The translations under genes and the position numbers were made by a program. A DNA stretch of 64,000 nt from the NCBI GenBank assembly GCA_964473485.1, contig CAYYPH010000001.1, positions 477 to 64,476 on the forward strand, read 5' to 3'. The notes beneath the pieces were generated by a model. That model was not told the origin of the DNA. It made no database searches and saw nothing but the letters and a program-made list of their open reading frames with translations. This document shows, one piece after another, positions 3,257 through 22,527 of this stretch. Numbering within the stretch: the stretch's first letter is position 1; each line of letters begins with the position of its first letter. This DNA is from an uncultured Prolixibacteraceae bacterium. GTDB lineage: Bacteria > Bacteroidota > Bacteroidia > Bacteroidales > FEN-979.

Positions 3257-3302
3257 ATAACCTGTTCTTTCTCCCCTGCAATTGCAGCCCTACTTTCGCT
3301 GC

Positions 3303-4437: not shown

Positions 4438-4848
4438 TTGCCCAATATCGATGAGAATTTCAAGAACCTTCAATATCTTGGTTTTGAATTTAATGGCCAA
4501 AATATTTACATTAGACCGTCAAGTTTGTCCAGATATTTCAGAAAAATGAAAGCGGGAATCTTTAAGACTGTATCAATGGCTTATAGTCCTAATTCAAAAT
4601 CGCATAATATTTTTAAACAAAGGCTTTTCAGTAAATATTCTCATTTTGGGAGAAGAAATTTTATTTCCTATGCGAAGAACGCAGCGAGGAAGTATTATAA
4701 AAACTCATTGGGTGAAATAAAAGAAGGGATGAACTCCCCCAGCATAAGCAGGCAAATATCCGCACACATGAGAATATTGACTCAAGAACTTGAAAAGACA
4801 AGTGCGCAGCGTGCAAAAACCAAAAGTGTCACCAAGTTGAAAAACTGA
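4438..4848 (+). pseudogene. Reverse transcriptase C-terminal (thumb-region) remnant
   Basis: NLQYLGFEFNGQNIYIRPSSLSRYFRKMK matches the conserved YLGF block that follows the RT palm in Abi/DRT/retron-type RTs. No RT motifs 1-5 lie upstream. Non-ATG start and low GC. Confidence 0.5.
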
Positions 4849-4895: not shown

Positions 4896-6989
4896 CTAAA
4901 TTTGTATTATCTCCGCCCTCGTCCCCGTTCCTGTAATTTCAACCTTCTGCATTGCCCTGGTAATAGCAACATAAATGAGCGCCCGCTCCGTAAGAAGATG
5001 TTCCTCTTGGTGATATAGCTCGGATTGATTGAATGATTTGGGTAAAAATGGAGCTGTACGGTAGTTTACATCAGCCAGGATAACAATCTTAAATTCCAGC
5101 TCTTTAAGACTATGAAAGGTCGAAAGGTTAATCCCTCCCGGTGATCCGCTCTGGGAGGTAAGGTCGAAATAGGGGAGGGTGCATTGATGGAGAGCGGATT
5201 TTATCTCCCGGAGTGAGTCCTTGAGCCGGGTTGCAACAGCGATATCACTATATGAGAGCCCAAGGTTGACGTTTTCTTTGATGACTTTGATTATGTATGC
5301 AAGTTCTTCTGCTTTGGTAGTGAACAGGTGATATTTTGGTTTTTCTCCATGAAACAGTGAAAGGTACCCATCCATCTTTTCAGCCTCACCTTCAAAGTTG
5401 TCGTAGGAATAATCCCTGACAGTGCTAATTGCCAATCGTTTAATTTCCTCTGTGGTTCTGTAATTAATTCGCAGTCTTTTGCTCCTTGTACCGCGGATAT
5501 TGATACCAGCCGATGAAAAATTGATCTTCCGCCGGAAAATCCTTTGATAAGGGTCACCCACCAGGAACATGTCATCGCTCTTTTCTTCTACCAGCGAACG
5601 GATAAAGCGCAACTCAACATTGGAAAAATCCTGTATTTCATCAACAATTATATGGGAAAATGGCTTTGACTCTTGCGTTTGATAATAAGTTGAAAGATTA
5701 TTGAAGAGTTCGGCCCTGTCCAGGAAATTTTCTTTTCTCTTTTTAACAATATAAGCCTCAATGGCTTTCCAAACTTCAATGCGTTGTTTACGGGTAATGG
5801 CCTTGCCCCGACCGATGCGGGATTGTTTTAAATACGCATCCAACGCCAGGATGCCATTGTAAAGGATTACTTCCTGGTATTCTGAATGTAGAAATGAAGC
5901 ATCAAACGGACAAAGCGTTTGCTCAAGCACTTCATCCCACAATTCAAGACTCGATTTGGAATTCGGGAAATCAAGAAATCGTGATCCTTGTGAGATTTTG
6001 CCTGTCGCTTTAGCCAAATCCCGTGCGAGCATATCTATATTTACAAGGCGGTAGAGGTTTGAGGGAATTCCCATTCCTGCAATAAGTTTTCCCAGGTTTG
6101 CAGTCAGCGCGGTGGTATAGGTGGCAAAAAGAATGGGTTGAGAGGCCGGGATTGTTTTTTCAGTCGCAAGGAACTTCAAACGATGCAAGGCTGCTACAGT
6201 CTTTCCGGTACCACCCCCCCCGGTAACTTTAACAGGTCCCCTGAAAAGCCCTTCCACAAGTTTACGTTGCGAAGGATGCAGAAATACCTGCCACTTTTTC
6301 AGGTCTCCATGTATCAATTCTTCCAGCAGCTTATCTTCTGCCACCACGAAACTTCGTTGGTTATTGATGCTTTGAACCTGCTCTTCATAGGTTGCAGATT
6401 TCACTTTTCCTTCTTCAATTTCAAAGATCAGGTTGTCGATGTTTGCTCCGTCGGCCAGGTAAAAAAGATTTTCAAAGGCATCCTCCGGCAGGTTTTTCTC
6501 AATATTTTCAAGGTCATCCAGGCTTGTGACATTTCTGACCAAACTCAGGGAAACAGGTGGCACTCCAATCGCCATCAATTGTTCATCTGATAGCTGACTA
6601 TATATATCAGACTCCCTGAAAGCTGGTATTGCCGACGGTGAAGGCATGGGTGAAACAGGAGGTGCAGTAAAAATCTGCACTACCTGCGTGTTGTCATTCC
6701 AGGTGATCATTTTATTTTGTGCCCAATCCATGGCCTCATCATGGGTATCGACCCAAAGCAGGAAATAGTCGTCCCCGGTTTCAGGAACCTTTATAATTGC
6801 CCGGTACTTATCATCAATGCGGGCTGTTCTTAGCGATTGATCGATAAAGGTCTTAATGGGTTCAAGATGGATTGCCTGGGAGCGTGAATTTTCCCGGAAT
6901 TTCCGCTGGAAGTCCAACACTTTATTCTGAATCGATTTTGGCAGGTCGATGAATTTTTCGAAAAATTTATCGTACAAAAACAATCTCAT
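4896..6989 (-). CDS. UvrD/Rep-type SF1 DNA helicase with about 100-aa N-terminal accessory domain
   Basis: Motif I VTGGGGTGKT, II IIVDEIQDF, III LVGDPYQRIF, IV LRINYRTTEEI, V TFHSLKELEFKIVIL, VI LIYVAITRA. The start overlaps the stop of the upstream gene by 4 nt. Confidence 0.85.
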   Translation of the reverse strand: MRLFLYDKFFEKFIDLPKSIQNKVLDFQRKFRENSRSQAIHLEPIKTFIDQSLRTARIDDKYRAIIKVPETGDDYFLLWVDTHDEAMDWAQNKMITWNDNTQVVQIFTAPPVSPMPSPSAIPAFRESDIYSQLSDEQLMAIGVPPVSLSLVRNVTSLDDLENIEKNLPEDAFENLFYLADGANIDNLIFEIEEGKVKSATYEEQVQSINNQRSFVVAEDKLLEELIHGDLKKWQVFLHPSQRKLVEGLFRGPVKVTGGGGTGKTVAALHRLKFLATEKTIPASQPILFATYTTALTANLGKLIAGMGIPSNLYRLVNIDMLARDLAKATGKISQGSRFLDFPNSKSSLELWDEVLEQTLCPFDASFLHSEYQEVILYNGILALDAYLKQSRIGRGKAITRKQRIEVWKAIEAYIVKKRKENFLDRAELFNNLSTYYQTQESKPFSHIIVDEIQDFSNVELRFIRSLVEEKSDDMFLVGDPYQRIFRRKINFSSAGINIRGTRSKRLRINYRTTEEIKRLAISTVRDYSYDNFEGEAEKMDGYLSLFHGEKPKYHLFTTKAEELAYIIKVIKENVNLGLSYSDIAVATRLKDSLREIKSALHQCTLPYFDLTSQSGSPGGINLSTFHSLKELEFKIVILADVNYRTAPFLPKSFNQSELYHQEEHLLTERALIYVAITRAMQKVEITGTGTRAEIIQI

Positions 6990-9900
6990 AAGCCAATCAT
7001 GTTAAGTGTAAAATTTACCGGATCAACGCACTTAAATCCTGCATTCTCAAATGCTTTTTTGTCAAGGTCAGAAATGGGGCTGATAACAATCCTTGCATTG
7101 GTGAACCCGATGGCCGCTTCCGCTACAACTCCATTTTCGTCCTCCAGAAAATAGCTTCCTTCGTGATTGAATTGAACATCGTTTGCAATGAGCAGCTTTA
7201 CGATCGGATGCAATTCGGGATCAAAATAGTCAAATACCTCCCCATCTTCATTTTCTTTTTCTTCGCCTGGCTTCTTTCCTTCACTTGTTGCAGTAAACAA
7301 TATCCTGCAAGATTCCTGCACCAGATTGTAAACCCGCCATAAATGTTGCCATTCTTCCTTATCAAGTCCGTTCTCAGGAATTTCCCTGATCAGGATCGTT
7401 GATTTGAAATTCAGGTCTCGCAGCCTGATGAGTAATCGTGCATCATACAAACTGGTTTCCGAGATGGCTTGAGAAATCATGCAAAAGTCTCCTTTTGCCT
7501 TTTCAGAAACTTCATGGTTGGGATCAATCGGTATCTTAAGGGCAAGGATATCTTCAGCCTCTTCATTTGAAAACGATGGTCTGGCAAGGATTTCCTGGAA
7601 TAACGCAAAAAACAGAGCAATTTTGTACCTGTTTTGATCTGTTTCTAAAGGATGTGTTAGTTGCCAGAGTAATCGCCCCATTGAATTTCCGGTTTCAATC
7701 AGATCACTGTTATGCTTGATCCAATGAGGGGTTCGCCCAAGCGCCTGAATCGTATTCCTGAATCTTGAACGATCAAGTGATAGCGTATCTTTCTCTTCCT
7801 TGTCAAATAGCTCCAGGTCATCCCAGGTAAGGGTCCAGGTTAATTTATCTGCTGATTCAACGATGGCCATGCGACGTTGTAAATCAGTCAGGAATCGCTG
7901 ATTCTCTTTCGATGCATGGTAGGTATATCCATCGAGATATACTGCAATTCGTTTTACCGATTCTGCGATTTCGGGATCCTCCACCGTGAATCCATTGTGC
8001 TGTATGCCGGTACATGAAATATAGAAATCCGATACCGTCTGGTACCTCACCCCCTGAGCGGTGCCGAGAGCTACCTGGGGCCGTATCATGTAGTTGAATT
8101 TGTAAGCTTCATTTACTACCGTAAGCATGTATGTAAGTATTCCGTCATCCACAAACTCTTCAAATTGCCATCCGTACGAACTCATCTTCGCCGATGTATT
8201 CCGTAAACTTCGGATAAACCGCTCTTCGAGCTCACTCTCCTCTATCTTTCCTGTACCGGAGAGTGTACTTAATCCATGGCTTAAAACTTCCCATGCTTCA
8301 GCATTGCTGACCAGTTTTTCAAAGAATTTCTCTGCCCGGCTGCGGCTCAACGCTTCTCTTAAATACTGGTTGGAATATGAAAAAATACACCGGTAACATC
8401 CATCCATCCCCTGATGCTGGCATGAACACTCCTTGATTGCCTTATAGGCGAAACGGATAAGTTGTGTAAATTCGGCCGGGTCGAATAGTTTTCCCAAATA
8501 TCCCGTCCCACCGGGTATTTTATCATAAAGTATCAGAAACCTGTCGAATCGGTTGTTTTGCGGGTTAAATTCCGAATAGCTTATCATCCTGATGTGTTCC
8601 GGGTTCCCCTGGTAGTACTTTTTCAAACCGAGTTCAAGCCCGGCTTTGAACATATTGATGGTGGCATCGTTGTCAAACTCCTGTACCGGAAGCAGCACTT
8701 TCAATACTTCCGTTTTTATACTTCGGAAGAGAAAAACCTCCTCGAACACTTCGTCCGGTTGATCATTATACTCATGATCCTTATGTTTGCAGTAACCGTA
8801 ATGAAACTTTACATCCTTACTCTTTGGTGAAGAGGTGGATTTTCCGCAATACCGGCAGGTGACAAAACCTGAGGCGGGAATCTCTTCAAGCTGGTTGATG
8901 GAGAGTTTCCGCGCATTGTATGCATCGAGCCGGCCCAGGTTAACTTCAGTGATTTCAACGGACTTAACATATTCAATCCCAAAGGGAATGTTTTTCATAC
9001 CCCAGGCTCCCTGGAACGTGTTCCTGTCAAAATTAAGATGCGTCGAAAGAACATACCGGCTGCTATCACGATCTTCGTTGCTGTCGTCGAGAATTGACTT
9101 ATCGCGGATATTAACTGACTTTACCGCATTCAGTTTAACAAATTTGTGTTCGTTTGACACGGAGGACCAGGACGAGTGCCCGCATTTTGGGCAGGTATTC
9201 TCTGAAACCATCGGTTTGTCGGCAAGGTGATCGCAATGGGAACAAAACCGTTTCGTCAGAAGGATCGAAGGATCATGCCAGTCATACGTATTAAGTCCTG
9301 ATATCGTTAATTTGTTGCCCTGGGAGTAGAAGAAGTTATCGGGCGCCAGTTCCCGGATTGCCACTTCGGCGGAGCGGACTATTTCAACCTGTTCGTCAGC
9401 AGGGGGGACGGCGCTTCCTTTTGCCTGGTATCCTTTCACCCATGCATTTAAAGTAACCCCCGTTTCGGGGAACGCATAGTTCGGAAGCAGTCCCGTATTT
9501 GTAAGATGCTCGAGTACTGACCTACGGTCGATTAACCTTTTAAGTCCCCACAATGCCTTCTTCTCCGCTTCCAGTTCCTTTCTTTCATCATCATTTGCCC
9601 CAAGGTGTTTCTCCTTGATGATTTTATCGATCTCCTTTCTCTTTAAATCAATGGTTCTGTACTCATCCTTCAATTTTTCAAAAACCCTCCGCAATCTGAA
9701 ATAAAAGCTCTCATCCCTAAGTTGATTTTCGATGCTATCCAGCACCTCCGGTTGAACTTCATGGATAAAGATCGTCCTGAATCTTTGAATTAAGGCGACT
9801 TCATGGGCCTTGATAAAACTGATGATTCTGTTGATGAGAAATCCGGATGAACTGATATCCGTGTTATAGATACGGAGTGCGATCAGCCGGCCGGGGATGG

Positions 9901-12900
9901 AATTTTCCTTTGGATTGGCCGATGCCCAGGAATCGAGACAAAAGGCAAAGAAATGGCGCAGCAGAATCTCCTTTGCTTCAAGGTAACACCCGGGGGTTGA
10001 GATCTCGCCCTCCATCATCTCCTTTGGCTCCTGGTAATAGAACAAATCATGTGCTTTGTTCTGTACGAAATTGGTGATGAGCGCTGAACCGGAAGATCTT
10101 CCCGCCCGGCCGATTCGCTGCATGAAATTGGAAGCGAGCGGTGGGACAGAATTATTAATGGCGGTATTCAGGGTTCCGATGTCGATCCCCATTTCAAGGG
10201 TCGATGTAGCTACAAGTGCATTGAGCGAGTTATACCGGGGCCGCATCTTAAAGTCGTTTTCCATTTTTTCACGATCACCCCGGTTCAGTATGCCTGTATG
10301 CTCTGTTGCATATATCCGTGGCGCCCTTGCCCGGTTATAAATCAGTTGATAGTAATTCAACTCCCTGACTTCATTGGTAGTATATTCTCCCGTACATCGA
10401 TAATTCAGACATTTTGCCCCTTTTGTAACGGTATCGTTAAACCCGACGGATAGTTTTGATGAACATTCGGAGCAAATCAGGTGTTTAACCTTGTTTTGTA
10501 CAAGGACAGAGTCTGGTCTCAGGCAGTAATTATGTTCAGCTCCTTCAGCCGCTTCGTTCAATATTCCTGTGTCACAAAGCAGTTCAAACAATTTCACGAA
10601 GAAATCATTCTGTATAGGATGGTAAGCAGGAGCATTAACAAATGATTTCGTAAAATAGGAATGAAACCAGTTGGCTGTCTGGGTGTTCGTGGTGTCAAGT
10701 AATCCCCGCAGATGAACATTTGATGTTACAAGTTTCGGGAACCTCGATTTGGGATGATACAGTTTGTTCAGGAAGTGTCTGTTATCACGCATCCAGTTCA
10801 GGTCCAACAGTTTCAGACCCTCATTGCGGTATTTTTCCAGGTAGGGATGATCAATGCCTCCCCTGATCCTGATTCGGTGTAAAATGCCGGCTAAGAAAGA
10901 GTGAAATCCATCTTCATCGATCATGCTGAGGTTGTTGTCATCCAGCCACGGTTTAATCTCCTGGAAAATCGCTCTGATTTTTTCCTCCGGGAAAAGAACG
11001 GCGGAGGCTCCGCTCTTTTCCAGTGTACGTCCAATACTCGCATTGAAACCAAATTCAGAAGAAATCTCCCAGGTAATCCTGTGGTCAAATTCATGGCAAA
11101 AATCCCGGGAGAATTTATGCGTTACCGGATCCCTGAAGTCATGGCGCAAATTTGTTTTACCCCGGTAATCCGAAGGGAAGAAACGATAATAATAGGCCTC
11201 TTCATCATCTTTCCCGGCTTCTCCGGTAAACCCCTTCCAGAAACGGATGAACTCCGTCTGAAGCGCTTCAATCGAAACCGTCCGGTTCAAAACATTCAAT
11301 ACCTTTTGAAGTGAGGAACGAAAGGTGAACCGATAATTCCTTGCTTCAATAAACCCGGCCTGGTGAGCTGCATCCTGCACACTATTGGTAAAGGCCAGTA
11401 CTTTCCGGTACTTTTCATCTCTGCTGTCCAGATCCGACGCCAAAATCTGGCTTACGGTAATGGATGAAAGTGTAGCTACGCGGGTTCCGATGATACTGAC
11501 CGTGTTTTCGGTATTGCATTCGGGGCATACATGGCGTGCTTTGCTGTTATGCAGTTTGCGCACTGCGATGATCTTCATCCTGTTCTTCCCATCGGTGTCA
11601 TGAATGGACAAATCCACGGGATCGAGGTAACGGTTGTTCAATAAGTCGGTCGGTTCATATTCGTCCACCGGCTTATGTTCATCCATAGCCGTATTGACAA
11701 AATAGATGTTTTTATGGTTGCTGAAGAAATGGTCATATATGGAAGGCAGATCAGGTTCAAAACTGTTACGGTTGTCATTTTTTAACCCCAGCCATCCGCT
11801 TGCACCACATTCGCGGCAAAACCAGGGAGGCAACGCCTTTGTTTCATCTTTATCTGATATTTTATCCTTCCATGTAAAGGAGGGCTCATTGCTGACCTCA
11901 CGCAACAGGCCACTGAGTTCTCTGATCCAAAGTTGTATCTGCAGGTAAAGGAAGGGAAATTTTTTACTGCCTGGCATTTTTGCCTCCGCGATGAGGGCCA
12001 GCAGGGAGTTCAATACCTCTTCCCGGGGTTTGAGGTCAGATTCAGACCCTATCTCCGGTAGCTTTCTGAACTCACCGTTTCTGTCGGCCAGTTTTTCAAG
12101 CAATTCCTGGATGGATATGATCCCGGCCGATGTCAGGTGAAGAATATCCCTGGTAATCTTCAGCTTTTTAAGTTCATTCCCGAGAATTACTTCATCAACA
12201 GTTTCCGGTATCTGCCATAATTTTTTCTGGCGCCGGATGTATTCCGTGTATTTCTCGTTTGAACCCAACCGGCTCTCGGTTATTCCCGACAAACGCGGAA
12301 TAAATGTTTCGAGTTCCTGTCCGGGTACGGCGAAAAAATCCTCAACCGTGATACGATTCTCAGTAACAATTGAATCCAGGTCGAATGATTCGCCAAACAC
12401 ACCCTGTGCATAACCGGTAAGCAGTTGTTGGGCTCCTTCGCCAGCGCCCATGGTAGCCGAGGTTCCCACCGGGCACAGATACCCCTCCGGAACATTCAAT
12501 TTGAGCTTCAACCGGCGGATGAGGTTGGCCACATCAGTACCCTGCGCTCCGTCGTAAGTATGGAGTTCATCAAGGACCAGAAACTTAAGTAAAGAAGGGT
12601 CGTTTAGATTATGCGTCCACAAATTGTGAAAATCGCTTCGCATCAGGCCATAGTCAAGCATCTTGAAATTGGTCAGCAGGATGTCCGGTGGGCTGTCCAC
12701 AATGGCATTCCGGTTTTCGATGATGTTCGCCGGACCCATATCTTTGGGATACTTCGCTTTATTCTTTCCCTCCCCGATTAACAGTCCGGCTGATATGTTA
12801 CCTTTTAGCCTTTCATCCACCCAGATGGTTTCCGCAAGCCGCTTCGCCTGATCGGTGGCAAGGGCATTCATAGGATAAAGGATGATCACCTTGATCCCCG

Positions 12901-13276: not shown

Positions 13277-13330
13277 TTAATGGTTCTGGTTTTGTTGTTT
13301 CTTTTTTCTTATATAGATATTATGGACATT

Positions 13331-14695
13331 TTATCCTTCATGAACCCCATCAGTAACCTTCCAGCTTCCACCCTTAGCCCCTCCCATTCGCTCGAGTTTT
13401 TGTTTTGCTTTCAGCCGGTTGATGCTTCGCTCAATGGATCGCGTGCTAACTCCCAGCGCAATTGCCAGTTCGGGAATGGTAATTTCATGATTCCTGGAAA
13501 TAAGTTCCAGTATTTTTTCGGTGGTTTTCCCCGACGCTTTCCCCGACGCTTTCCCCGACGTTTTCCCCGACGTTTTCCCCGACGATATTTCCGTTTCCTT
13601 TTTAAACTCAATCACGAAACCGGATAAGTCATAACTGAAGACTGGTGGTGGTAATTGTGCCAATGAGCACTCCCTGAGAATTTTCAGGGTGCCACGGCCC
13701 CACGACTCGATTAATCCGGCACGAAAGAAGGTTGCGGCAATATCCGGATTAAATGGAACCGATGGATGCTTGTGCAACAAATGTTCAACCGTCCAGTTGT
13801 CGGGTAGCTGGCCTTCGTTCCAGAAAATTATACGATCGTCGTAAACACTGATCTGGATGGGATTTCCACTGCTGTAATCCTTGTGGGCCAATGAATTCAA
13901 CAACGCTTCGCGTAAAGCAGCTTCCGGGAATGGATACGATTCAACCCTGGTTATGCCATCATAGGAAATGATTGCTTTCAGATATTTTGTGAGCAGCAAA
14001 TCCATCGTTTTGTCAACCTGTCCGAACAGATGCCCGTGGATTTCGTCCTGGTAAAGCAGTTCATCGTCTGTTCTGAAAAATCCGATTTTGACATATGCGC
14101 CGGTTACAAATTTTTCCGGATCGGGGTGAAACAACAGAATGGCAGCCCTCTTCAGGTAATTTCCTTCGGTTAAATGCAGTTTCTCTATCAATATTCCATT
14201 GTCATCCTGCAACATTTCCGGGCTTAACCTCTTGCTTCGGGAAGCCTTTTGACGGAAGTTGATAAACGCATCTTCACTCAGGTTTGGCACAGAAACATTG
14301 GGAACTGGAACGCTATCCCAGCGCCTGCCCTGTTTTTGCAATAAAAACTTATCGAGGGCAGCTCCCTTTAATTCAAGCTTTGTACTCCCGCTGCGGTAAT
14401 GGTATTGCCCCTTGTAGTTTACCGGGAATGGCTGCGGCTCAACCACAATCTCCAGGTACTCGCGGCCATTTTTCGATTGAAGGTTAACATCAACAACAAT
14501 TCCCAGAATATCCCTCACTTTATTCGGAATGGTTTCGAGTAACTTTCGCGGCTCTGACAAACCGGTTACCATGCCCTTGTCGTTGATGCCGATATAAAGG
14601 GTACCCCCGTTTGCATTGGCAAAACCGCAAATCCACTTTATGTATTCATCCCTCCAGGATTCCTTCCATTCAACATGCTGGTTTTCGGCGCTCAT
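13331..14695 (-). CDS. AlbA_2 (Schlafen-like) + HATPase_c_4 + C-terminal wHTH protein
   Basis: N-terminal ENQHVEWKESWRDEYIKWICGFANANGGTLYIGINDKG is the AlbA_2 signature. The C-terminal ILELISRNHEITIPELAIALGVSTRSIERSINRLK is a wHTH. An (SGKT/A)5 linker sits between them. Confidence 0.7.
   Translation of the reverse strand: MSAENQHVEWKESWRDEYIKWICGFANANGGTLYIGINDKGMVTGLSEPRKLLETIPNKVRDILGIVVDVNLQSKNGREYLEIVVEPQPFPVNYKGQYHYRSGSTKLELKGAALDKFLLQKQGRRWDSVPVPNVSVPNLSEDAFINFRQKASRSKRLSPEMLQDDNGILIEKLHLTEGNYLKRAAILLFHPDPEKFVTGAYVKIGFFRTDDELLYQDEIHGHLFGQVDKTMDLLLTKYLKAIISYDGITRVESYPFPEAALREALLNSLAHKDYSSGNPIQISVYDDRIIFWNEGQLPDNWTVEHLLHKHPSVPFNPDIAATFFRAGLIESWGRGTLKILRECSLAQLPPPVFSYDLSGFVIEFKKETEISSGKTSGKTSGKASGKASGKTTEKILELISRNHEITIPELAIALGVSTRSIERSINRLKAKQKLERMGGAKGGSWKVTDGVHEG
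13529..13584. repeat. 12-bp tandem repeat (ccccgacgcttt / ccccgacgtttt), 4.7 copies, in-frame
   Basis: Read directly from the sequence. It encodes SGKTSGKTSGKASGKASGKT in the minus-strand AlbA_2 gene. Confidence 0.9.
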
Positions 14696-14734
14696 GGGTC
14701 AGTGTATCGTAATGATCTGCAAATGATTCATTGT

Positions 14735-17700
14735 TTATGTGTTATCAAAGACTTTCTCAAAATACCCCCACGCCACCCTGTAATCCTCCACCCGGTCGCA
14801 TTTGTCAAACGGGGCATGGTAAGTTACCTTCCTGCCATAATAAAGCTCGCTTTTGGTGATGGTGTGCTCATAGGTTTTCCCGGCGGGAAGGTTTCGAATC
14901 TGCTCCCACACCAGGCGGTCAACGCCAACCCCATTGAGCCCTTTGCTGCAGGTGAACACAATATTCCCGTTGGTATCATACCAGGTGTCGTCTTCATTCT
15001 GCTGAAGGACCGGGAACTGCACGTTGTAAATCAATATCAGCTCTTCCAGGGTTAATCCCAATGCCATGGCGGTGATCACATCTATCTCCACCAATGCCTG
15101 CCGCCGCTCGAACCAGTTGCGCAGGGGGGTGCCCCATTGCCACTGCGGTGTCAGCGTATCAAAGGGTTTGAGCCGGGGATCGGGCTTGCTCCATTGATCC
15201 CGGTTGAACTCCGACTGGTACATCTCCTCCCAGAGCGGCGCGTAATATTTGTTGAGACAGTTGAGGAGAAGGGTGCGGGAGTATATGTGGTTTTTGAATT
15301 TGATATCGATACCCAGTGGAAATTGTTTGATAATATTATCTGTCAAATTGGAAGCTCCAATTGATTTCAGGAAGAAATCAAGAATTATTGAAGAGGTTAT
15401 CCCGCAAAGCTCAATAACTAAGGCTACATTTTCGAAAACGATAGAATTTATACTATTCAGGTGAAATACTCTGGGAGGCAGAATTACAGGTTGTAATGTC
15501 CTTTCACCAGTAATACTTAGCATACGTGACCAACTCGTTTTAAATACTTCAACCCCACTGCAAGGGTTTCTCTTCTTAAATACCGTGAACCTTTCGGTAA
15601 AATCTTCAATTGATTGTAAAACCTTAAAACTTGTATTTGGAAAAAAATCTTCAATTATTTCAGTAATATCAACTGCATCATAATCGAGATTATTTTTTGC
15701 AGTGGGTCGAATGCTTTTGTAAATTGGGTTACAAACAAAGAAGTTAGGACCACTGTAAACTACAACATTTTCTTTTGGAGAGAAAAACTGAGGCTGTTCA
15801 ATGATATTTTTCTCTCTGATTTCTTTAGCTTGGTCTAAGCCAATCAAAATCTCAAATATGTATTCTGATACTCTCTTCTCAACATTTGCCAGCTTATCTA
15901 ATGCACTTAAAATATCATTTGAGTGAATGCTTACGAGTTTAGTCCCAGAATAATTATCTGAGTTTTCAAAAACCTTTGCAAGTAATTTTAGACTATTCTC
16001 ATTACAATGTAAGATTCTTTTTTTGTGTGGCTGTATATTCCAAGTCGACTTTCCGGTTGCCTTATCCTTTTCTTTAATTCCGCCACAAATACCAGTGCCA
16101 TCATGAATAAATGAACCACTTATTGTGAAAGGATGAAATAAATTATTAATGGAAGAGAAAGAAATTTCCCGTTTATTCCAAGCATAGATGTTTATACCAT
16201 ATGTATTGTGATGGTCTATTTCGGCAAATAGTAGTAACTCATTTTTAAATTGAAAATGATATAAAAGTCTTTTAAATATATTTTGTCGTGCATTTTTTGC
16301 ATTAGGGTCATCGTATATGCTTTCAGGGTGCACTAACCCGATGAGTCCTGTTTTATTTGTAATCCCAAAACTGTTTTCCAGTACATTTTTATAGAGGTTG
16401 TTTTTTTGTCCAATCATAATTGGATAATTCTGACAGCTTCCAATAAAACTTTGAATGCATTCAGCGTTTACTTGCTCATCAATTACTTCTGTTTTAAATT
16501 CATCAAATTTTCTAATAATCTGTTCGCAAAGACTAAACGCATCATCAGTATTAGTTTTACGGATTAATACTTCAGGATAAAGTGTGGACACTAATCCTTT
16601 AACATCAAACAGTATTTCAACCCATGGAGGATTCCCCGCAATCAGATCAAACCCGCCCCGTTCCCAGAAAACATCAAGAAATTCCAGTTGGGGATGAAAG
16701 AAGCGGTATTTTAGGGTTAACTCCTGGACAATTGGGATTCGTTGATTCTGGTCGAAAAAATCACGTTTAACGGAGTAGCGAACAAAGGCTTCATTCACGA
16801 AATTAACGTTATCCACTTCAGTTGCCTCTGCTTCGGGATATTCTGTTACTGTTTCAGGGGCAAGGGTACGATCATCCGTTGGTGCAATTTCGTTCACCCT
16901 GGGTTCTTCCTTTTCCGGTGTTAGCGTAAGCTGAATGGCTACCGGCGCAAACATGTTCAGCTGCACCCCTTTATCATCCCCAAATTCATCCGGTTTGCGG
17001 GAAGTCCGGAGATCAGCGGCTGCTTTGGCCAGGTCAAGGTCGAGAATGTCGGCGATATCCTGCCAGTATTGTTGCCGGGTAGGTAATTCGCCTGCCTCTC
17101 GCATGTCCCAGAACCAAAGGGCGCACCAGTAGTCCATCACCATCTTCAGTTTGAAGTAGGGTGCGTTGTGGCGGTTGCGGTAATCGGCAAGCGCCTCCTT
17201 TTCATGGTAGGTTTTCAGCGCGGTCTGAATCCCTTCCGTTGGCACCCCGAAAACTGACAGGCGGGTATGGGTCTGTTGGTTAATGTGTTGCTGGAACCGG
17301 TAATACTCTTTTATCAACCCGTCAATGGTGGCCGAGATGCGTTGCAGTATTTTGAGTTCCGAAAGCAATATTGGTTTTACCCAATCGCTTTTCCATTCCC
17401 TCACCTTTTTGGCTGCCTCAGGGTATTCGTTTTTCAGCATCGGAATTCCGGCAGAGGCCAGCATATTTTTATCGGGCAACAGAAAATGATAAATCTCCTT
17501 CTCTTTCCGGAGAACGCCTTTTTTACCGATTTCAAGTTTTACAGGCGCCGTTTCCCACCATGCTTTAATGGGTTGCCGCCTGAGTGGTTTTCCTGATGAA
17601 TCCAACTCTGTAAGAAACGATGCGGCAGGATAGGCCTTCAGCCAGGCGCCCACCACCGCGTTGCCCACCCCCAGCCGGTTGCTGAAGAAGGGGGTCTCCA

Positions 17701-19669
17701 TATCCCTGTGGATCACGTTGAGCCATAGGGAGAGTTTGCCCAGCTCGATGGCTGTGGGGTTGATATCGACTCCATACACATTGTGGGTGGCGATATAGGC
17801 CTTCACCTTCTGCAGTTCTTCGCGGTACTTGTTGGGTGGAATCCTTTGGTTGATCTCTTCCTGCCGGTAGGTAAGATATGCCTCTGCCAACTGGTTGATC
17901 ATTTCGTTGTGAAATGCCGCGGCACCCATGGCAGGTTCGAGAAGTTTCAGGTTGAGTAGTTCCAAAGAGTCGATCTCTTTATTATCAAGCCTTTCAAGAA
18001 TGGGCTTCAGGGTATATTTTACCGTACACCGGGTCAGCACTTCGGGGGTGTAGTAGGAGGCCGATTTCTGGCGGTCACGGCCCGATAGGCGATATACAAA
18101 GGTCCCCTTTTTCAGGATCTCCGTTTCGCCGTTTTCATCCTTCAGGATCTCATCCTCGTTGAAGTCGTCGCGCCGCGACCGGGGAACGAGGTAGGTGCCA
18201 TCTTCGGGTTTGCCAGCCTTGTGTACCTCAATGTAATCCTGTTCTGCATAAAAGCCCCGGTAGGCCAGCAAACTTTCATAAACGCTGCCAAGCTGGTTTA
18301 TGCCGAGGTTGGCATAGGATATACGTCCGCGGTTGCGGCCCCGCTGCTCCTTCGACAGGGAGAGGCGGCGGATGATCTCCTGCCACACAAAGTTGCGGAA
18401 TTTCACCTCCCTTAAATGAAGTAACCGGGTATCGTCGAAGTGGGGCGAATCGATGGATCGTACCCTGAAACTCCGGTTTTTTGAATCCTCCTTTTCGCGG
18501 TACCCGGTTCCAAGGAGGTGAAAGAGGCGGGTCAGCGATTCATGGAAGAAGTACCCGTTGCGGCTGCTGTCGGAATACATGGGCACCTGCTCCAGGTCGC
18601 GCAGCATTTCAAGCGAATAGCCTTTAAGGTATGCACTGTCGTTTGTTGGCAGGATATCCAGTTCAATTCGTGATTCTGCATAAAAGATGAAAAGAAGGCG
18701 ATATACAAAGATCAAACATTCCTCCTTCATCGCCTGCTCGAAAAGATCGTTAGTTTCGTCAAATACCTCCCCGGCAACCTGTTTTTTGTACCATAGGGCC
18801 TCGTTGGCCAGCGCTTCCACCGCGTGAATGATGCCTTCTTTCAAATCCCTGGTTACTTCGTAGGCGCTTTTGTGGCTGTCTTCATCCAGTTGGTCCAGCA
18901 AAATCATGTTGCTCTGGTGTGCCAGCGATTCCTTTGCCAGCAGGAAATAGAAGAGCGCATAGGTATTCTTTGACGGGAAGGCCTGGTGTTCGGTAAACAA
19001 CTCTTCGAGGTCGAACTTCAGGTAGCTGCCACGGTCCCACTTATCCTGTTCGAGAAGGAAAACGATGTTCCCTGCCAGTAGCAATATGTATTTTGGCCGG
19101 TTATGTTTGAGCAGGAAAAGAGCCGATACCGCTTCATTGATCTTGCTCGGGGAGATCCTGACGCCTTCCGGGACAGAGAAAATGCGTTCCCATTGTTTAC
19201 GGTGGTAACGCTGGGCCTCGGTTTGCGTCTCCTCGTTCTCCACATTATAACATTGCTCGAAAAGGCTGTCCGGCTCATTTTCTCCCTCCCTGATCATGGG
19301 TTGCATCTCCATGATCATGAGTTGCACCTGGTCTCCCCGGTAAAGGAGGTGCCGTATGGGCAGCGCATCGTGTTCGTTCAGGTGGAAAAGGGAATCGTAG
19401 CTCGTCGGGTTGCCCTGGTAGCCCAGGGCATCAAGCAGAACGGAATGGAATTTATGGGTCTCGTAGATTTTATCCCTCGTGCGCAACCCACCTTCAATCA
19501 CCAGTTGCTTAAACCTGAAATAGGCGGTACTTAACGGCGATATTCGTTTGTTGAATTCCCCCAACTGGTCGCGGGCATACCCGGTTTTATCGATCACCTT
19601 TGCCGGGAAATCCTCGTCGAACCAGGTGGTCGAAAAATAGTCGCCTACATTTTCAATAAATCGGATCAT
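14735..19669 (-). CDS. 1644-aa gamma-class N6-adenine DNA methyltransferase (DrmMI/PglX-like)
   Basis: SASYYTPEVL, motif I LEPAMGAAAF (17912..17941), GVDINPTA, FHPQLEFLDVFWERGGFDLIAGNPPW with NPPW at 16622..16633. The start overlaps the SNF2 stop (ATGA at 19666..19669). Confidence 0.85.
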   Translation of the reverse strand: MIRFIENVGDYFSTTWFDEDFPAKVIDKTGYARDQLGEFNKRISPLSTAYFRFKQLVIEGGLRTRDKIYETHKFHSVLLDALGYQGNPTSYDSLFHLNEHDALPIRHLLYRGDQVQLMIMEMQPMIREGENEPDSLFEQCYNVENEETQTEAQRYHRKQWERIFSVPEGVRISPSKINEAVSALFLLKHNRPKYILLLAGNIVFLLEQDKWDRGSYLKFDLEELFTEHQAFPSKNTYALFYFLLAKESLAHQSNMILLDQLDEDSHKSAYEVTRDLKEGIIHAVEALANEALWYKKQVAGEVFDETNDLFEQAMKEECLIFVYRLLFIFYAESRIELDILPTNDSAYLKGYSLEMLRDLEQVPMYSDSSRNGYFFHESLTRLFHLLGTGYREKEDSKNRSFRVRSIDSPHFDDTRLLHLREVKFRNFVWQEIIRRLSLSKEQRGRNRGRISYANLGINQLGSVYESLLAYRGFYAEQDYIEVHKAGKPEDGTYLVPRSRRDDFNEDEILKDENGETEILKKGTFVYRLSGRDRQKSASYYTPEVLTRCTVKYTLKPILERLDNKEIDSLELLNLKLLEPAMGAAAFHNEMINQLAEAYLTYRQEEINQRIPPNKYREELQKVKAYIATHNVYGVDINPTAIELGKLSLWLNVIHRDMETPFFSNRLGVGNAVVGAWLKAYPAASFLTELDSSGKPLRRQPIKAWWETAPVKLEIGKKGVLRKEKEIYHFLLPDKNMLASAGIPMLKNEYPEAAKKVREWKSDWVKPILLSELKILQRISATIDGLIKEYYRFQQHINQQTHTRLSVFGVPTEGIQTALKTYHEKEALADYRNRHNAPYFKLKMVMDYWCALWFWDMREAGELPTRQQYWQDIADILDLDLAKAAADLRTSRKPDEFGDDKGVQLNMFAPVAIQLTLTPEKEEPRVNEIAPTDDRTLAPETVTEYPEAEATEVDNVNFVNEAFVRYSVKRDFFDQNQRIPIVQELTLKYRFFHPQLEFLDVFWERGGFDLIAGNPPWVEILFDVKGLVSTLYPEVLIRKTNTDDAFSLCEQIIRKFDEFKTEVIDEQVNAECIQSFIGSCQNYPIMIGQKNNLYKNVLENSFGITNKTGLIGLVHPESIYDDPNAKNARQNIFKRLLYHFQFKNELLLFAEIDHHNTYGINIYAWNKREISFSSINNLFHPFTISGSFIHDGTGICGGIKEKDKATGKSTWNIQPHKKRILHCNENSLKLLAKVFENSDNYSGTKLVSIHSNDILSALDKLANVEKRVSEYIFEILIGLDQAKEIREKNIIEQPQFFSPKENVVVYSGPNFFVCNPIYKSIRPTAKNNLDYDAVDITEIIEDFFPNTSFKVLQSIEDFTERFTVFKKRNPCSGVEVFKTSWSRMLSITGERTLQPVILPPRVFHLNSINSIVFENVALVIELCGITSSIILDFFLKSIGASNLTDNIIKQFPLGIDIKFKNHIYSRTLLLNCLNKYYAPLWEEMYQSEFNRDQWSKPDPRLKPFDTLTPQWQWGTPLRNWFERRQALVEIDVITAMALGLTLEELILIYNVQFPVLQQNEDDTWYDTNGNIVFTCSKGLNGVGVDRLVWEQIRNLPAGKTYEHTITKSELYYGRKVTYHAPFDKCDRVEDYRVAWGYFEKVFDNT

Positions 19670-22527
19670 GCCTTTGGAGGATTATAAAAAACGGCCAGTA
19701 TCTTCAGAAATGCGTCGTTTTGCAGTGAGGTCAGGTTTTTATAGTATTGACCGCTGGTGTTCAGGATGGTTTTGATCTCCTTAAAGGTGTTGTCTTTCCT
19801 GGTTTTTAGAAAAACCGTTTCCCCTTTTCCAAAAAATTCCATTTCAAGCTGTTGTAAGGCACCTGCCTCCCATTCGGATAAATGTTTCTCAAAGGTGGTA
19901 AGTTTCTGGTGCATTTTCCGTTGCAGGTCATCTTGTCGCGGAGCCATGTAAAGCAACTGGGCGCGGTTGATGACATCAGTAAGCAGGGTCTGCAAATGAG
20001 CCAGGTGGTCTTCTTCGATAAGTTCTGTGTAAAGGGTGTCGGTTAAATGGTACGCATCCACGAATTCGCTGAAGAAAAACGGTTTTTGAGCCAGGCTGCC
20101 ATCCCACTTCACCCCGGTGACAAAAAAATCGGAAATGACCGGCTGACCCAGATCATTTGAAACCTGCCCGTGAAGAATAAACCAGGCCGTTCCCTCAGGG
20201 AAAATGGACGAACGGGCGGCCAGTGCAATATCCTTATCAACGCTGGCTTCCAGTTTGCTCATGAAATAACGGATGGCGGGATGCAGTTCATAGAGTACCT
20301 GGAACTTTGCCCATTCCCCTCCCTTTTTCCTGGCCTGTTCGATGGCTTTCTGCACAAGCTCCTTGTCTGAGGTCAGGCGAAAGATGTCGTTGATTTTTGG
20401 CAATGCTTCCGGCGGAAGGTCAAAGAGAACTTCATTCAGTTCAGGTGTGTTCATCAATTCAATGTAGCCGGGTGAATTCTCCTTCAATTCATTCCCTGAA
20501 ACCTGGCCTGAACTGATAAGTTGTTCGAAAAGGTCCCGGTAAAAAAGGTCATCCCGGGGATAAACCGAAAGCGGGGCATCGTAAGGCTGATCAGTAATAA
20601 CAGGTGATGTTTTATCAGATTCATTTTCAAATAGAATCGAAAAATCAAAACCGGCTTCCCCGTGTTTTTCAAGATAATCTTCATCCTGCTTTTTAATGGC
20701 ATTCGCCACATATTGCTCCTCTTTCTTCTGGTTGTAGAGCCTCATCACCGAACCCGCATCACCCAGCGATTTATGTGCCTCCTCCTCTTTGTGTGTTAAC
20801 CGTTCGATGATATGCAGATCTGTTTTCAGGCCGGGAATATCCGATTCGGCAACCAGGTAGTAAATATAAGGCGTGTTGTACTGCCCATACCGGTCAATAC
20901 GTCCATTGCGCTGTTCAAGGGTGATAAGCGACCACGGGATGTCGTAGTTGATCATCCGGTTGCAGAAAAAATGCAGGTTGACCCCCTGCGATGCAGCATC
21001 GGAGCAGATCATGATGCGAACCCGGCTGTCTTTCTTTCCAAAATCATCGATCATGGCCTCCTGCTCCACATCCGATAGGCTCCCGTGGAAAAAAGCAACC
21101 GACTCAGGTTCTAAACTAAAATCGCGCGTGAGATTTTCTTTCAGGTATTCAATGGTATCGATCCTTTCGGCAAACAATACGATTCGGTCGTCATGCAGGC
21201 GTCCCGACCAACCCAGTTCAATCAATGTCTCCCTGAGTTTATGATACTTGCTGTCAGCCTTATTGTCGAGGATATTTTCAAGTTTTGATTTCAACTCATG
21301 AAGTACCGCGAGGTTATCCTCAAGATCGTCAGTAATGCTAACCGCTTGTTTCACCTTTTCAATCCGGTTATGAATGCTTGCAAGGGCTGCTTTTGGCGAC
21401 GAGAGAAAAGCCTTGAAAATACCGATGGAAAAAAGATAGTCGTTTTGCGGTTTTCCCTCTCTGATTCCTGCAAGTGCACTGACCTTTAGGTTTTGCTGGT
21501 ACTGCAGGAAGTCAATTTCACCTGCGGTCAGGCGGGTTCCCAGGCGCACAATCTCACGATCCCGGAAATTGGCCCGTACACTTGCATCTTCGATGTCGTT
21601 TTTAAACCGGCGCACATAATAATCCTCGATATCCGCCTTGCCATATTCACCGCTTCGGGGAATCGCGGTTGGTTCGATCATCCGGATGATATTGGCGAAG
21701 GATTCCTTTCGTCCGTTATGCGGCGTAGCGGATGTGAGTATGAGTGCATCACATTGCTGTGAAAGGAACTGTGCCAGGTCGCCGCGCTGGCTCTCTTCAT
21801 TGGCAACCGTATGACATTCATCAATGACAATGATATCCCAGCGCGATTTTTCGATGTAATGCCTGAACTTGGCATTGTTCTTCAGGGTATCGATGGAGAT
21901 GATTGTTTTGTCGTAGTACTCAAATGGATTTTTGTTGGCCGGGAGTTTCGTTTTTATCCGTGAGATGCCTTCGCTGTCAAGCCGAACCAATGGGATGGCA
22001 AACCGGTTCCACATCTCTTGCTGAAACTGCGCGAGAATAGACTTTAATGCAAGCACCATGATCCGTTTCCCTTTGCCGCGTTTCATCATCTCGGCCAGGA
22101 AGATCCCCGCTTCGATGGTTTTCCCCAGTCCGACTCCATCCGCGATAAGAATCCTTGGCCGTGGCAGTTTCAGCGCCTTCAGTGTCGGCGTCAACTGGTA
22201 TTCTGCCAGGTTGAATGCCCCTTTCGGAGCAATGGTGATTTTCTCCGAATAGATAAAGGAGTTCCGGACCTGGGTTTCGATGAAAAGTTTTGTCTTCCTG
22301 TATCCGCTGTCAATATCCGCAATCAGGCGGGTCCGTGTCGGATCAACCGTTGAAATCTCTGTATCTATATTTGTATCAAATACAAAGGATTTCCCCTTCA
22401 CCAGTTCACTGATTCCCTGCGCATGAAGCAAAAAGGAACCATCGTAGTTGGTTTCAACTTTGGATATAAGAAAATCCTCGCCACGGGCTGAGATTTTTTG
22501 ACCTTCTGAGAAAATGCTGGCAGACAA
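19666..22527 (-). CDS. SNF2-family helicase (DrmD-like)
   Basis: ILIADGVGLGKT (22117..22140), DECH box (21814..21825), SATPHNG, QRNGRIDRYGQ. The only available start is TTG at 22525..22527, so the start is uncertain. Confidence 0.85.
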   Translation of the reverse strand: MSASIFSEGQKISARGEDFLISKVETNYDGSFLLHAQGISELVKGKSFVFDTNIDTEISTVDPTRTRLIADIDSGYRKTKLFIETQVRNSFIYSEKITIAPKGAFNLAEYQLTPTLKALKLPRPRILIADGVGLGKTIEAGIFLAEMMKRGKGKRIMVLALKSILAQFQQEMWNRFAIPLVRLDSEGISRIKTKLPANKNPFEYYDKTIISIDTLKNNAKFRHYIEKSRWDIIVIDECHTVANEESQRGDLAQFLSQQCDALILTSATPHNGRKESFANIIRMIEPTAIPRSGEYGKADIEDYYVRRFKNDIEDASVRANFRDREIVRLGTRLTAGEIDFLQYQQNLKVSALAGIREGKPQNDYLFSIGIFKAFLSSPKAALASIHNRIEKVKQAVSITDDLEDNLAVLHELKSKLENILDNKADSKYHKLRETLIELGWSGRLHDDRIVLFAERIDTIEYLKENLTRDFSLEPESVAFFHGSLSDVEQEAMIDDFGKKDSRVRIMICSDAASQGVNLHFFCNRMINYDIPWSLITLEQRNGRIDRYGQYNTPYIYYLVAESDIPGLKTDLHIIERLTHKEEEAHKSLGDAGSVMRLYNQKKEEQYVANAIKKQDEDYLEKHGEAGFDFSILFENESDKTSPVITDQPYDAPLSVYPRDDLFYRDLFEQLISSGQVSGNELKENSPGYIELMNTPELNEVLFDLPPEALPKINDIFRLTSDKELVQKAIEQARKKGGEWAKFQVLYELHPAIRYFMSKLEASVDKDIALAARSSIFPEGTAWFILHGQVSNDLGQPVISDFFVTGVKWDGSLAQKPFFFSEFVDAYHLTDTLYTELIEEDHLAHLQTLLTDVINRAQLLYMAPRQDDLQRKMHQKLTTFEKHLSEWEAGALQQLEMEFFGKGETVFLKTRKDNTFKEIKTILNTSGQYYKNLTSLQNDAFLKILAVFYNPPKA

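Follow-up and report, generated by a model that had tools for sequence, protein, structure and literature searches.

Gene Organization of the Locus

Five closely packed genes on the minus strand of a 64,000-nucleotide stretch of Bacteroidota DNA (the window) raise the question of whether familiar helicase and methylase parts have been assembled into a new kind of defence system or whether a known system lies behind them. The earlier note had read these genes as a single multi-gene defence operon with kinship to both DISARM class 1 and Druantia, which agrees with the present analysis. It had also suggested an undescribed hybrid architecture, which does not agree with it: the same gene content and order are those of the catalogued ARMADA type II system (PMC12458937, PMC13463889), a case that the note itself had named as one that would refute its reading. 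The locus is very probably an ARMADA type II operon (armA-armB-armC-armD) in a Bacteroidota genome, with an unrelated single-gene defence candidate, a prokaryotic Schlafen nuclease (pSlfn), embedded between armB and armC. The locus adds a member to a family already described and does not represent a novel type of system.

The first gene, armA (19666..22527, minus strand, as for all features described below), is an ORF of 953 aa encoding an SNF2/BrxHII/RapA-like helicase. It is followed by armB (14735..19669, 1644 aa), which encodes a PglX-like N6-adenine DNA methyltransferase, and by a pSlfn cargo gene (13331..14695, 454 aa), whose product has AlbA_2, HATPase_c_4 and wHTH domains. The operon continues with armC (6986..13276, 2096 aa), encoding a YprA-family DEAD/DExH helicase with a DUF1998/MZB module and a C-terminal nuclease region, and closes with armD (4896..6989, 697 aa), encoding a UvrD-type helicase with a RelE-fold N-terminus. 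On the plus strand, TCAT stands at both 19666-19669 and 6986-6989, hence ATGA on the coding strand, and at the second of these sites the start of armD overlaps armC by 4 nt. The coordinates leave gaps of 39 nt between armB and the AlbA_2 gene and of 54 nt between the AlbA_2 gene and armC.

All five ORFs, with the motifs and domains quoted for them in the earlier note, are recovered at these positions. The SNF2 protein has DGVGLGKT at residue 130, DECH at residue 236 and QRNGRIDRYGQ at residue 539, and the methylase has LEPAMGAAAF at residue 577 and GGFDLIAGNPPW at residue 1005; an hmmscan of the five proteins against Pfam returns the expected helicase, methylase, AlbA_2, DUF1998 and UvrD domains. 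Five ORFs of such size with such domains are far beyond chance. A scan for sigma-70 promoters and terminators gave counts equal to those of shuffled sequences, the Bacteroidetes motif TAnnTTTG is absent from the four intergenic gaps, and a megablast of the 17.6-kb locus against plasmids gave no match. The locus lies in a defence island, with GmrSD, AbiE and a DUF262 protein nearby. The GmrSD gene, which lies upstream, was weighed as a possible component of the system, and this was rejected because homologs of GmrSD are not conserved at that position.

Relationship to ARMADA Type II

ARMADA type II was described in 2025 (Bell et al., PMC12458937) and again in mBio in 2026 (PMC13463889). Its genes follow a strict order of BrxHII-like helicase, PglX-like methylase, YprA-like helicase and RelE-GajB-like helicase (PMC12458937). 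In E. coli, defence needs all four genes as well as the ATPase and NPPW motifs (PMC12458937), and protection is direct and non-abortive (PMC12458937, PMC13463889). With the locus of E. coli ATCC 8739 as the reference for comparison, the four arm proteins of the window are colinear with their counterparts and can be aligned end to end, with scores of 535, 472 + 409, 818 and 398 bits for ArmA to ArmD, respectively. Their lengths of 953, 1644, 2096 and 697 aa are matched by 952, 1642, 2113 and 704 aa in E. coli ATCC 8739, and the ARMADA II loci of E. coli NCTC 12900 and EDL933 (O-island 172) likewise encode these four proteins, with the gene order unchanged and the lengths nearly equal. The E. 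coli proteins, which are the validated ones, share only 30-40% identity with those of the window. All of the eight residues mutated in the E. coli experiments are kept here, and so is the order of the four genes, with one extra co-directional gene between armB and armC. The assignment to type II is made on operon content and on ArmD.

ArmA contains the Pfam domains SNF2-rel_dom and Helicase_C and is 34% identical to E. coli ArmA over residues 1-947; K136 of its Walker A motif and D236 of its Walker B motif stand at positions identical to those mutated in E. coli. ArmB contains an Eco57I-type methylase domain and shows 35-40% identity to E. coli ArmB in two segments, and it preserves G582 of the SAM motif (G605 in E. 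coli) and N1013 of the NPPW motif (N971 in E. coli). ArmC carries DEAD, Helicase_C and MZB (DUF1998) domains in one polypeptide, so that the fusion of helicase and DUF1998 claimed for the single 2096-aa ORF is borne out. It is 30% identical to E. coli ArmC over residues 1-1834, with K107 (K110 in E. coli) and D236 (D234 in E. coli) kept, and its homologs bear a faint Pfam annotation as YjiV_N. In ArmD, the UvrD-helicase and UvrD_C domains span residues 238-686, the identity to E. coli ArmD is 33% over residues 2-689, and K263 (K266 in E. coli) and D450 (D454 in E. coli) are kept.

Synteny was surveyed on contigs encoding homologs and by a metagenome scan; a scan of genome contigs with a single protein gave only 4 loci. 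The four arm genes occur together and in the same order in Bacteroidota, Cyanobacteria, Actinomycetota and Proteobacteria. The nearest relatives in other phyla all lie within A-B-C-D operons, and the same order is found on plasmids of Nostoc, Streptomyces and Gemmobacter. The host is a member of the Bacteroidota, whereas Actinomycetota and Pseudomonadota are stressed in the ARMADA paper (PMC12458937). Among the rows listed of Table S1 of that paper, those of type I include some Bacteroidota, and six NCBI accessions of close homologs are absent from the rows listed (Bell et al., PMC12458937). Neither Druantia III nor Zorya II lies next to the locus in the window, a difference from ARMADA II in E. 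coli.

The C-Terminal Region of ArmC

BLAST gives no alignment between the last ~260 residues of ArmC and E. coli ArmC. Residues ~1675-1830 (7787..8254) are predicted to form a Vsr/DUF559-like PD-(D/E)xK nuclease domain, and a nuclease role is inferred for it. Among 51 diverse ArmC proteins, that of E. coli being one of them, residues E1684, Q1734, D1750, D1782-G1783, H1787, D1798, R1802 and D1820 show no variation, and the AlphaFold2 model of the region has a pLDDT of 87.5. For E. coli ArmC, HHpred matches to Vsr have been reported and the C-terminus has been called a Vsr-type nuclease (Bell et al., PMC12458937; PMC13463889). By hhalign, the tail matches E. coli Vsr (1CW0) only weakly and locally (E 0.0037, probability 9%), in an alignment that pairs D1750 of ArmC with D51 of Vsr and H1787 with H69. 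One ArmC homolog matches REase_MTES_1575 (E 0.006).

The Vsr fold was not recovered by single-sequence hmmscan of the window and E. coli tails at E ≤ 10, by scans of all 51 ArmC tail sequences or by a profile search of PDB sequences. Foldseek with a three-domain model of 442 residues also returned no Vsr fold, and the multi-domain query probably hurt this search. When the predicted nuclease domain was used as query for an exhaustive phmmer search of 1.84 billion cluster representatives, 292 of these were matched; among the matches listed, which are the best-ranked ones, almost all are ArmC or ArmC fragments, and none forms a bridge to DUF559. The proposal that the system includes the UvrD helicase and a nuclease-like tail agrees with the present analysis, the tail carrying the invariant Vsr/DUF559-like motif.

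The UvrD Helicase ArmD

A homolog of ArmD lies directly after armC in 63 of 68 related loci. The earlier note had treated the UvrD gene, together with the AlbA_2 gene, as an extra gene embedded in the operon and had asked whether the two co-occur with the 2096-aa protein. The UvrD gene does so; it is not an addition and is the core ARMADA component ArmD, with a RelE-fold N-terminus. The AlbA_2 gene does not, being found in ~5 of ~50 informative related loci, four of them sequence-distinct. The fold of the N-terminus (residues 1-108, 6666..6989) comes from an AlphaFold2 model with a pLDDT of 85, for which Foldseek against the PDB returns the toxins YoeB, RelE and YafQ with a probability of 1.00, a target-normalised TM of 0.70-0.79 and an E of 5e-4. 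Among the PADLOC models, GajB and NERD+UvrD match ArmD. Several ArmD homologs carry the JGI name 'RelE'.

Alternative Assignments

DISARM class 1 (DrmD, DrmMI, DrmA, DrmB and DrmC) also begins with two genes, for an SNF2 helicase and for a large adenine methylase, that it shares with ARMADA by definition (PMC12458937). A further common part is a YprA-family helicase with a DUF1998 module, and unmodified DNA is the presumed target of both systems. DrmD is the best PADLOC model for ArmA (324 bits), and DrmMI gives 160 bits on ArmB. It is nevertheless highly improbable that the locus is a DISARM class 1 variant with DrmA and DrmB fused and DrmC replaced by UvrD and a nuclease tail. In NCBIfam, DrmD reaches 340 bits against a cut-off of 610, which indicates a homolog and not an equivalog, and DrmA reaches 24 bits against a cut-off of 999; the large helicase scores ~300 bits with the DruE-type models of PADLOC, its best matches, and at most 76 bits with DrmA. 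Helicase and DUF1998 form one polypeptide of the Druantia/ARMADA branch, and the ARMADA helicases have been grouped with Druantia, outside the DISARM/Dpd branch (Bell et al., PMC12458937). A separate DrmB and a PLD nuclease are absent, and an extra RelE-UvrD helicase is present. The locus fails on the defining features of DISARM, and the membership in class 1 proposed for it has to be given up. The lack of a PLD protein (DrmC), claimed at the same time, is confirmed, none of the proteins having a PLDc match, not even when their unannotated segments are scanned at E ≤ 10; the one HxKx4D string in the locus is an isolated HEKEALAD in the methylase. Druantia type III (DruH and DruE) likewise has a ~2100-aa helicase of the YprA family that carries DUF1998 and, C-terminally, a nuclease region. 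A system of this type, or a chance juxtaposition of a Type IIG enzyme and unrelated helicases in a defence island, would agree with the DruE-type matches of ArmC, with the 1623 bits of the REBASE-derived Type IIG model (REase_MTase_IIG, PDLC03614) on ArmB and with the defence genes around the locus. Both readings are scarcely credible, however. With E. coli DruH as tblastn query, the window gives no match. The large helicase reaches 818 bits with E. coli ArmC versus 110 bits, over a local similarity, with E. coli DruE, and the locus differs from Druantia type III in its predicted Vsr-like instead of PLD tail and in having a methylase together with SNF2 and UvrD helicases. Juxtaposition is refuted by the synteny of the four genes across four phyla, and no nuclease domain is found in ArmB with Pfam, nor in its unannotated segments at E ≤ 10. 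The PADLOC run that the earlier note had proposed for the locus was made with the PADLOC models, and these return the DrmD, Type IIG and DruE-type matches given above.

The fifth gene could also be seen as part of the system itself, the AlbA_2/HATPase_c_4/wHTH protein being an integral subunit or a dedicated regulator of the operon in a five-gene ARMADA variant. Its co-directional position with short gaps on both sides and the C-terminal wHTH favour this reading, as does the presence of AlbA_2+HATPase_c_4 genes directly upstream of armC in three ARMADA lineages (the window with loci L012 and L099; locus L001; and loci L075 and L081). However, most related loci and every E. coli locus lack the gene, and its position is taken elsewhere by many unrelated genes. 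The three lineages share only 23-30% identity in this protein, as against 63-65% between the embedded protein and stand-alone genes in other phyla, and homologs stand alone in unrelated defence or mobile contexts. An integral or dedicated regulatory role is very improbable. Within the ARMADA type II operon, the AlbA_2 gene is variable cargo, separately mobile and independently acquired, and lies outside the core.

Proposed Mechanism

In the ARMADA type II operon, ArmB would methylate adenine in host DNA, thereby marking self and/or acting as a subunit that the system requires, like PglX in BREX. ArmA, as an SNF2 translocase, and ArmC would act on unmodified invading DNA, the presumed target. 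ArmC would be an ssDNA translocase of the YprA type, which has a canopy of OB, connector and Zn-cluster parts as well as further Zn modules, and its predicted Vsr-like PD-(D/E)xK domain may cut the invading DNA, standing in for the PLD nuclease DrmC of DISARM. ArmD, combining a RelE fold with a UvrD motor, would be the obligatory fourth subunit. The resulting immunity would be direct and non-abortive, as in E. coli.

Distribution and Annotation

The finding opens no new class of immunity; it extends ARMADA type II to the Bacteroidota. The Bacteroidota-type lineage has thousands of metagenomic homologs, with 53-82% identity, which are annotated only as 'DEAD/DEAH box helicase'. The HMMs of PADLOC-DB v2.0.0 (2023) and NCBIfam r20 (2026) would call the pieces of such a locus DrmD, Type IIG, DruE or nothing, and loci of this kind are probably misfiled at scale because current models label their pieces in this way or leave them unnamed. 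The gain is correct annotation and a naturally occurring collection of ARMADA loci, some with embedded cargo and some lacking it, in which the cooperation of nested defence genes with their host system can be probed.

The Embedded Schlafen Gene and the armB-armC Junction

Nucleases of the Slfn/AlbA_2 type with an Ex4(E/D)xK motif and accessory domains are known as pSlfn, and a HisKinase-HTH class has been defined among them (PMC13056530). In the 454-aa protein, Pfam recovers SLFN_AlbA_2 (PF04326, E 2.4e-15), HATPase_c_4 and a C-terminal wHTH, and the motif is intact as E4-NQHV-E9-W-K11 (ENQHVEWK, residues 4-11). By these sequence features the protein is a predicted pSlfn nuclease of the HisKinase-HTH class, with which it shares the order of an N-terminal Slfn/AlbA_2 domain, HATPase_c_4 (GHKL-like) and wHTH as well as defence-rich surroundings; it differs from the pSlfn proteins of PMC13056530 in being nested inside another system. 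More than 8000 homologs were found, mostly stand-alone in defence or mobile contexts. Defence by pSlfn has been shown only for DUF262-Slfn and Ig-like-Slfn; the HisKinase fusions tested in E. coli, of classes other than HisKinase-HTH, gave no protection (PMC13056530). The embedded pSlfn would most likely be an independent, second-line, trigger-activated nuclease, presumably an RNase, co-transcribed with the operon.

The existence of a cargo slot between armB and armC is well supported. The junction is empty in 12 loci and occupied by other genes in at least 27. It serves as a cargo slot in the majority of related metagenomic loci, with Tiamat, GmrSD, AbiE, Fic and others as contents, whereas in 526 E. 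coli genomes the slot is unoccupied and armB and armC are contiguous. With its extra gene the locus deviates from the strict gene order given for ARMADA type II, and the embedding of genes is not mentioned in the two ARMADA papers (PMC12458937, PMC13463889). Upstream of armC, no conserved sequence indicative of a possible recombination site was seen.

A more far-reaching suggestion, which we regard as rather unlikely, is that in Bacteroidota-type ARMADA II the junction may be a dedicated cargo bay that exchanges second-line defence genes functionally coupled to ARMADA. Its contents (pSlfn, Tiamat, GmrSD, AbiE, Fic, OLD-like ATPases and others) may then be under the operon's own transcription, and the AlbA_2/HATPase_c_4 Schlafen nucleases, present in three independent lineages, may be a recurrent preferred partner. 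A functional coupling of the cargo to ARMADA, for example as a backup if phages inhibit or evade ArmC, is speculation. As in the arrangement seen here, co-directional foreign defence genes nested among the core genes have been described in another methylase-helicase system, in a study that left ARMADA II uncovered, and GmrSD-like genes are frequent cargo in both.

Assignment of the Locus to ARMADA Type II

The locus comprises five minus-strand genes whose coordinates are exactly those of the earlier note: armA (19666–22527; SNF2 helicase of 953 aa, Pfam SNF2-rel_dom/Helicase_C), armB (14735–19669; methylase of 1644 aa, Pfam Eco57I-type methylase), a prokaryotic Schlafen nuclease gene, pSlfn (13331–14695; 454 aa, Pfam SLFN_AlbA_2 and HATPase_c_4 with a wHTH), armC (6986–13276; 2096 aa, Pfam DEAD, Helicase_C and MZB (DUF1998)) and armD (4896–6989; UvrD-type helicase of 697 aa, Pfam UvrD-helicase and UvrD_C). 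Both overlaps of 4 nt (ATGA, reading TCAT on the plus strand; 19666–19669 and 6986–6989) and all five quoted motifs are present where that note put them, and the gaps of 39 and 54 nt agree with the ORF coordinates. The absence of a PLD was also borne out: no PLDc family of Pfam was found, including in unannotated N- and C-terminal segments scanned at E ≤ 10, and a search of the locus proteins for HxKx4D gave a single isolated string, in the methylase. The observation of the locus as a whole is therefore upheld.

The interpretation of the locus as a DISARM class-1-like operon is a different matter. The PADLOC models give the same mixed picture that had been seen before, with the SNF2 protein matching DrmD, the large helicase DruE, the UvrD protein GajB, and the methylase both a REBASE-derived 'Type IIG' model and DrmMI. 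The NCBIfam DISARM models, however, score well under their cut-offs (DrmD 340 against 610, DrmA 24 against 999), and DISARM membership was rejected on these grounds. Druantia membership was rejected as well, since no DruH homolog was found in the window and the large helicase has only local similarity (110 bits) to the neighbouring DruE of E. coli. Four of the genes instead match ARMADA type II, a system of four genes kept in strict order: a BrxHII/RapA-like SNF2 helicase (ArmA), a PglX-like methyltransferase (ArmB), a YprA-like helicase carrying a Vsr-type nuclease at its C-terminus (ArmC) and ArmD (Bell et al. 2025, PMC12458937). Defence by the E. coli system is direct and non-abortive and requires all four genes as well as the ATPase and NPPW motifs (PMC12458937); ARMADA II has also been validated in EHEC EDL933 (PMC13463889).

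In direct comparison with the E. coli ATCC 8739 locus, all four protein pairs are colinear over essentially their full length, with 953, 1644, 2096 and 697 aa here and 952, 1642, 2113 and 704 aa in E. coli. Identities are 34% for ArmA (535 bits), 35–40% for ArmB (472 + 409 bits), 30% for ArmC over residues 1–1834 (818 bits) and 33% for ArmD over residues 2–689 (398 bits). The eight residues targeted by mutation in E. coli are all retained here: K136 and D236 in ArmA, G582 and N1013 in ArmB (E. coli G605 and N971), K107 and D236 in ArmC (E. coli K110 and D234), and K263 and D450 in ArmD (E. coli K266 and D454). The colinear match, the conserved residues, the failed DISARM models and the lack of DruH together identify the locus, at the level of sequence, as ARMADA type II and as a member of neither DISARM nor Druantia, an assignment based on operon content and ArmD rather than on a tree. 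As ARMADA II is already known (PMC12458937), the proposed 'undescribed hybrid architecture' cannot be maintained; the locus adds a member in Bacteroidota, a phylum not emphasised in that paper.

ArmB matches the PADLOC model PDLC03614, 'Type IIG restriction enzyme-methyltransferase', over its full length (14735–19669, minus strand; 1623 bits), and Pfam/hmmscan revealed no nuclease domain in the protein. ArmB-type proteins have probably been catalogued as putative Type IIG enzymes, in which case automated annotation would be misled.

ArmD and the C-terminal Domain of ArmC

The UvrD gene, previously taken for an extra gene embedded in the operon, is the core subunit ArmD. Its co-occurrence with the large helicase holds across genomes: of the 68 related loci that extend far enough downstream, 63 have an ArmD homolog starting 0–686 nt past the armC stop, and the A-B-C-D order is also found on Nostoc, Streptomyces and Gemmobacter plasmids. 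An AlphaFold2 model of ArmD residues 1–237 (pLDDT 85) matches the YoeB, RelE and YafQ toxins in Foldseek with a probability of 1.00 and target-normalised TM of 0.70–0.79; several ArmD homologs are annotated RelE by JGI.

The 'nuclease-like tail' suggested earlier has an invariant Vsr/DUF559-like motif. E1684, Q1734, D1750, D1782-G1783, H1787, D1798, R1802 and D1820 are invariant in 51 diverse ArmC tails, including that of E. coli, and the resulting pattern, E...Q...D(F)...xDGxxxH...DxxxR, is that of Vsr/DUF559-type PD-(D/E)xK nucleases. The hhalign alignment of the tail with E. coli Vsr (its sequence checked against 1CW0) places D1750 on D51 and H1787 on H69, although the match is weak (E 0.0037, probability 9%), and one ArmC homolog matches REase_MTES_1575 (E 0.006). 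Since neither hmmscan nor the PDB-profile and Foldseek searches recovered a Vsr-like fold, the reading of the tail as a Vsr-type nuclease relies in part on the HHpred results given for the ArmC C-terminus by Bell et al. (PMC12458937). A search of 1.84 billion cluster representatives with the nuclease domain (7772–8269, minus strand) gave 292 representatives at E ≤ 1e-3, and the best-ranked matches listed are almost all ArmC or ArmC fragments; these matches indicate that this predicted domain is largely private to ARMADA helicases.

By homology, ArmB would mark self DNA by adenine methylation while also being needed for defence itself, ArmA and ArmC would move along unmodified DNA of invaders, which would be cut by the Vsr-like domain of ArmC, and ArmD would be an obligatory RelE-UvrD subunit. 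In E. coli the defending cells do not die (PMC12458937), and the presumed target is DNA that lacks modification.

The armB–armC Junction and the Embedded Schlafen Gene

The armB–armC junction is an often-occupied cargo slot in metagenomic loci (L001–L091), which is not mentioned in either ARMADA paper (PMC12458937, PMC13463889); the embedding of genes within systems is a phenomenon already described. The metagenome sample covers the 80 top matches out of at least 585 and includes some near-duplicates. The two genes are separated by 0.6–8.6 kb of co-directional genes in 27 related loci, and in 13 further loci armC is preceded by more than 10 kb of co-directional genes similar in kind, with armB not seen there. 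Among the cargo are Tiamat TmtA (984 bits, full length), Sacsin-like giant proteins that in some cases are paired with a Mokosh-like SF1 helicase, GmrSD pairs, AbiEi/AbiEii, Fic-wHTH, AAA_15/21 ATPases, HNH and YhcG nucleases, a cassette containing HSP70 and pSlfn, which fills the slot in the window (13277–14734). Among 5426 complete E. coli genomes, 526 have the junction in contiguous form (reference L011:22000–24000, ATCC 8739), mostly on the chromosome, with 15 places on plasmids. In L091, a metagenome locus of enterobacterial type, the junction instead carries an inserted UvrD-like gene of 986 aa.

The AlbA_2 gene is embedded in the operon, as had been noted, but it is variable slot cargo and not part of the system. 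It is not conserved beside the ARMADA core, armB and armC being directly adjacent (≤68 nt) in 12 related loci and separated by other cargo in others. Besides the window and its close relatives L012 and L099, the loci L001 and L075/L081 have AlbA_2 + HATPase_c_4 genes in this slot; these versions share only 23–30% identity with the window protein, whereas proteins of stand-alone genes from Niastella and from a MAG of Desulfobacterota share 63–65%. Strong homologs in the family number more than 8000 and occur alone beside OLD-type ATPase, Fic, FokI/HsdR, HNH and NB-ARC genes and on integrase-bearing islands. Because the stand-alone genes are closer than the slot versions and the family is widespread alone, the gene is judged to be independently captured cargo. 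Its architecture is the 'HisKinase-HTH' composition, which accounts for 19.2% of 5,930 pSlfns (PMC13056530), and the catalytic Ex4(E/D)xK motif is intact (ENQHVEWK, residues 4–11). The pSlfn classes with demonstrated defence are DUF262-Slfn and Ig-like-Slfn, of which the second is a Mn-dependent tRNase that responds to a phage protein as its trigger; the HisKinase-HTH class is not one of them (PMC13056530). The embedded pSlfn is most likely an independent trigger-activated RNase that would gain from co-transcription.

Variant Loci and Genomic Surroundings

In one sub-lineage (L006/L007, L014, L054 and L062), ArmC is shorter (~1990–2007 aa), with ~100 C-terminal residues missing, and armD is absent downstream; L006 instead has an 857-aa UvrD-like gene immediately after armB. 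Three gut/rumen-type metagenome contigs (L027, L028 and L049) have the permuted order armC-armD-armA-armB, so the 'strict order' of type II does not hold everywhere. In the closest genome-derived relative (L003, Bacteroidales MAG JADJEQ010000015.1; 86% ArmC identity), armC and the upstream Sacsin-like/helicase cargo are split into many short ORFs, reflecting either pseudogenisation or long-read assembly frameshifts.

The window, which comes from a Bacteroidota genome, carries T9SS sorting domains and CarboxypepD_reg-TonB receptors, and the nearest relatives are MAGs of Bacteroidales and Bacteroidia. The locus lies within a defence island. A GmrSD-type (DUF262) type IV restriction gene (22598–24430, minus strand; 610 aa; best PADLOC models PDC-M55C and HEC-05 (BrxU-like)) precedes armA by 70 nt on the same strand, and was rejected as an ARMADA part since its homologs are not conserved at that position in related loci. 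The overlapping ORFs for an AbiEi_2 antitoxin and an AbiEii nucleotidyltransferase toxin (28008–29826, minus strand) represent a predicted type IV toxin-antitoxin/abortive-infection module. A second, DUF262-only protein (2207–3256, plus strand; NsnA-like, 108 bits; PD-T4-2_A, 66 bits) is encoded between two unannotated ORFs, one of which (1611–2210) overlaps its gene by 4 nt, and this group (1611–3953, plus strand) may be a small separate defence module. Directly downstream of armD, there are two short overlapping ORFs (4235–4848, plus strand). One has an HTH_Tnp_1 transposase domain, and the pair is probably what remains of a transposase at the system's edge.
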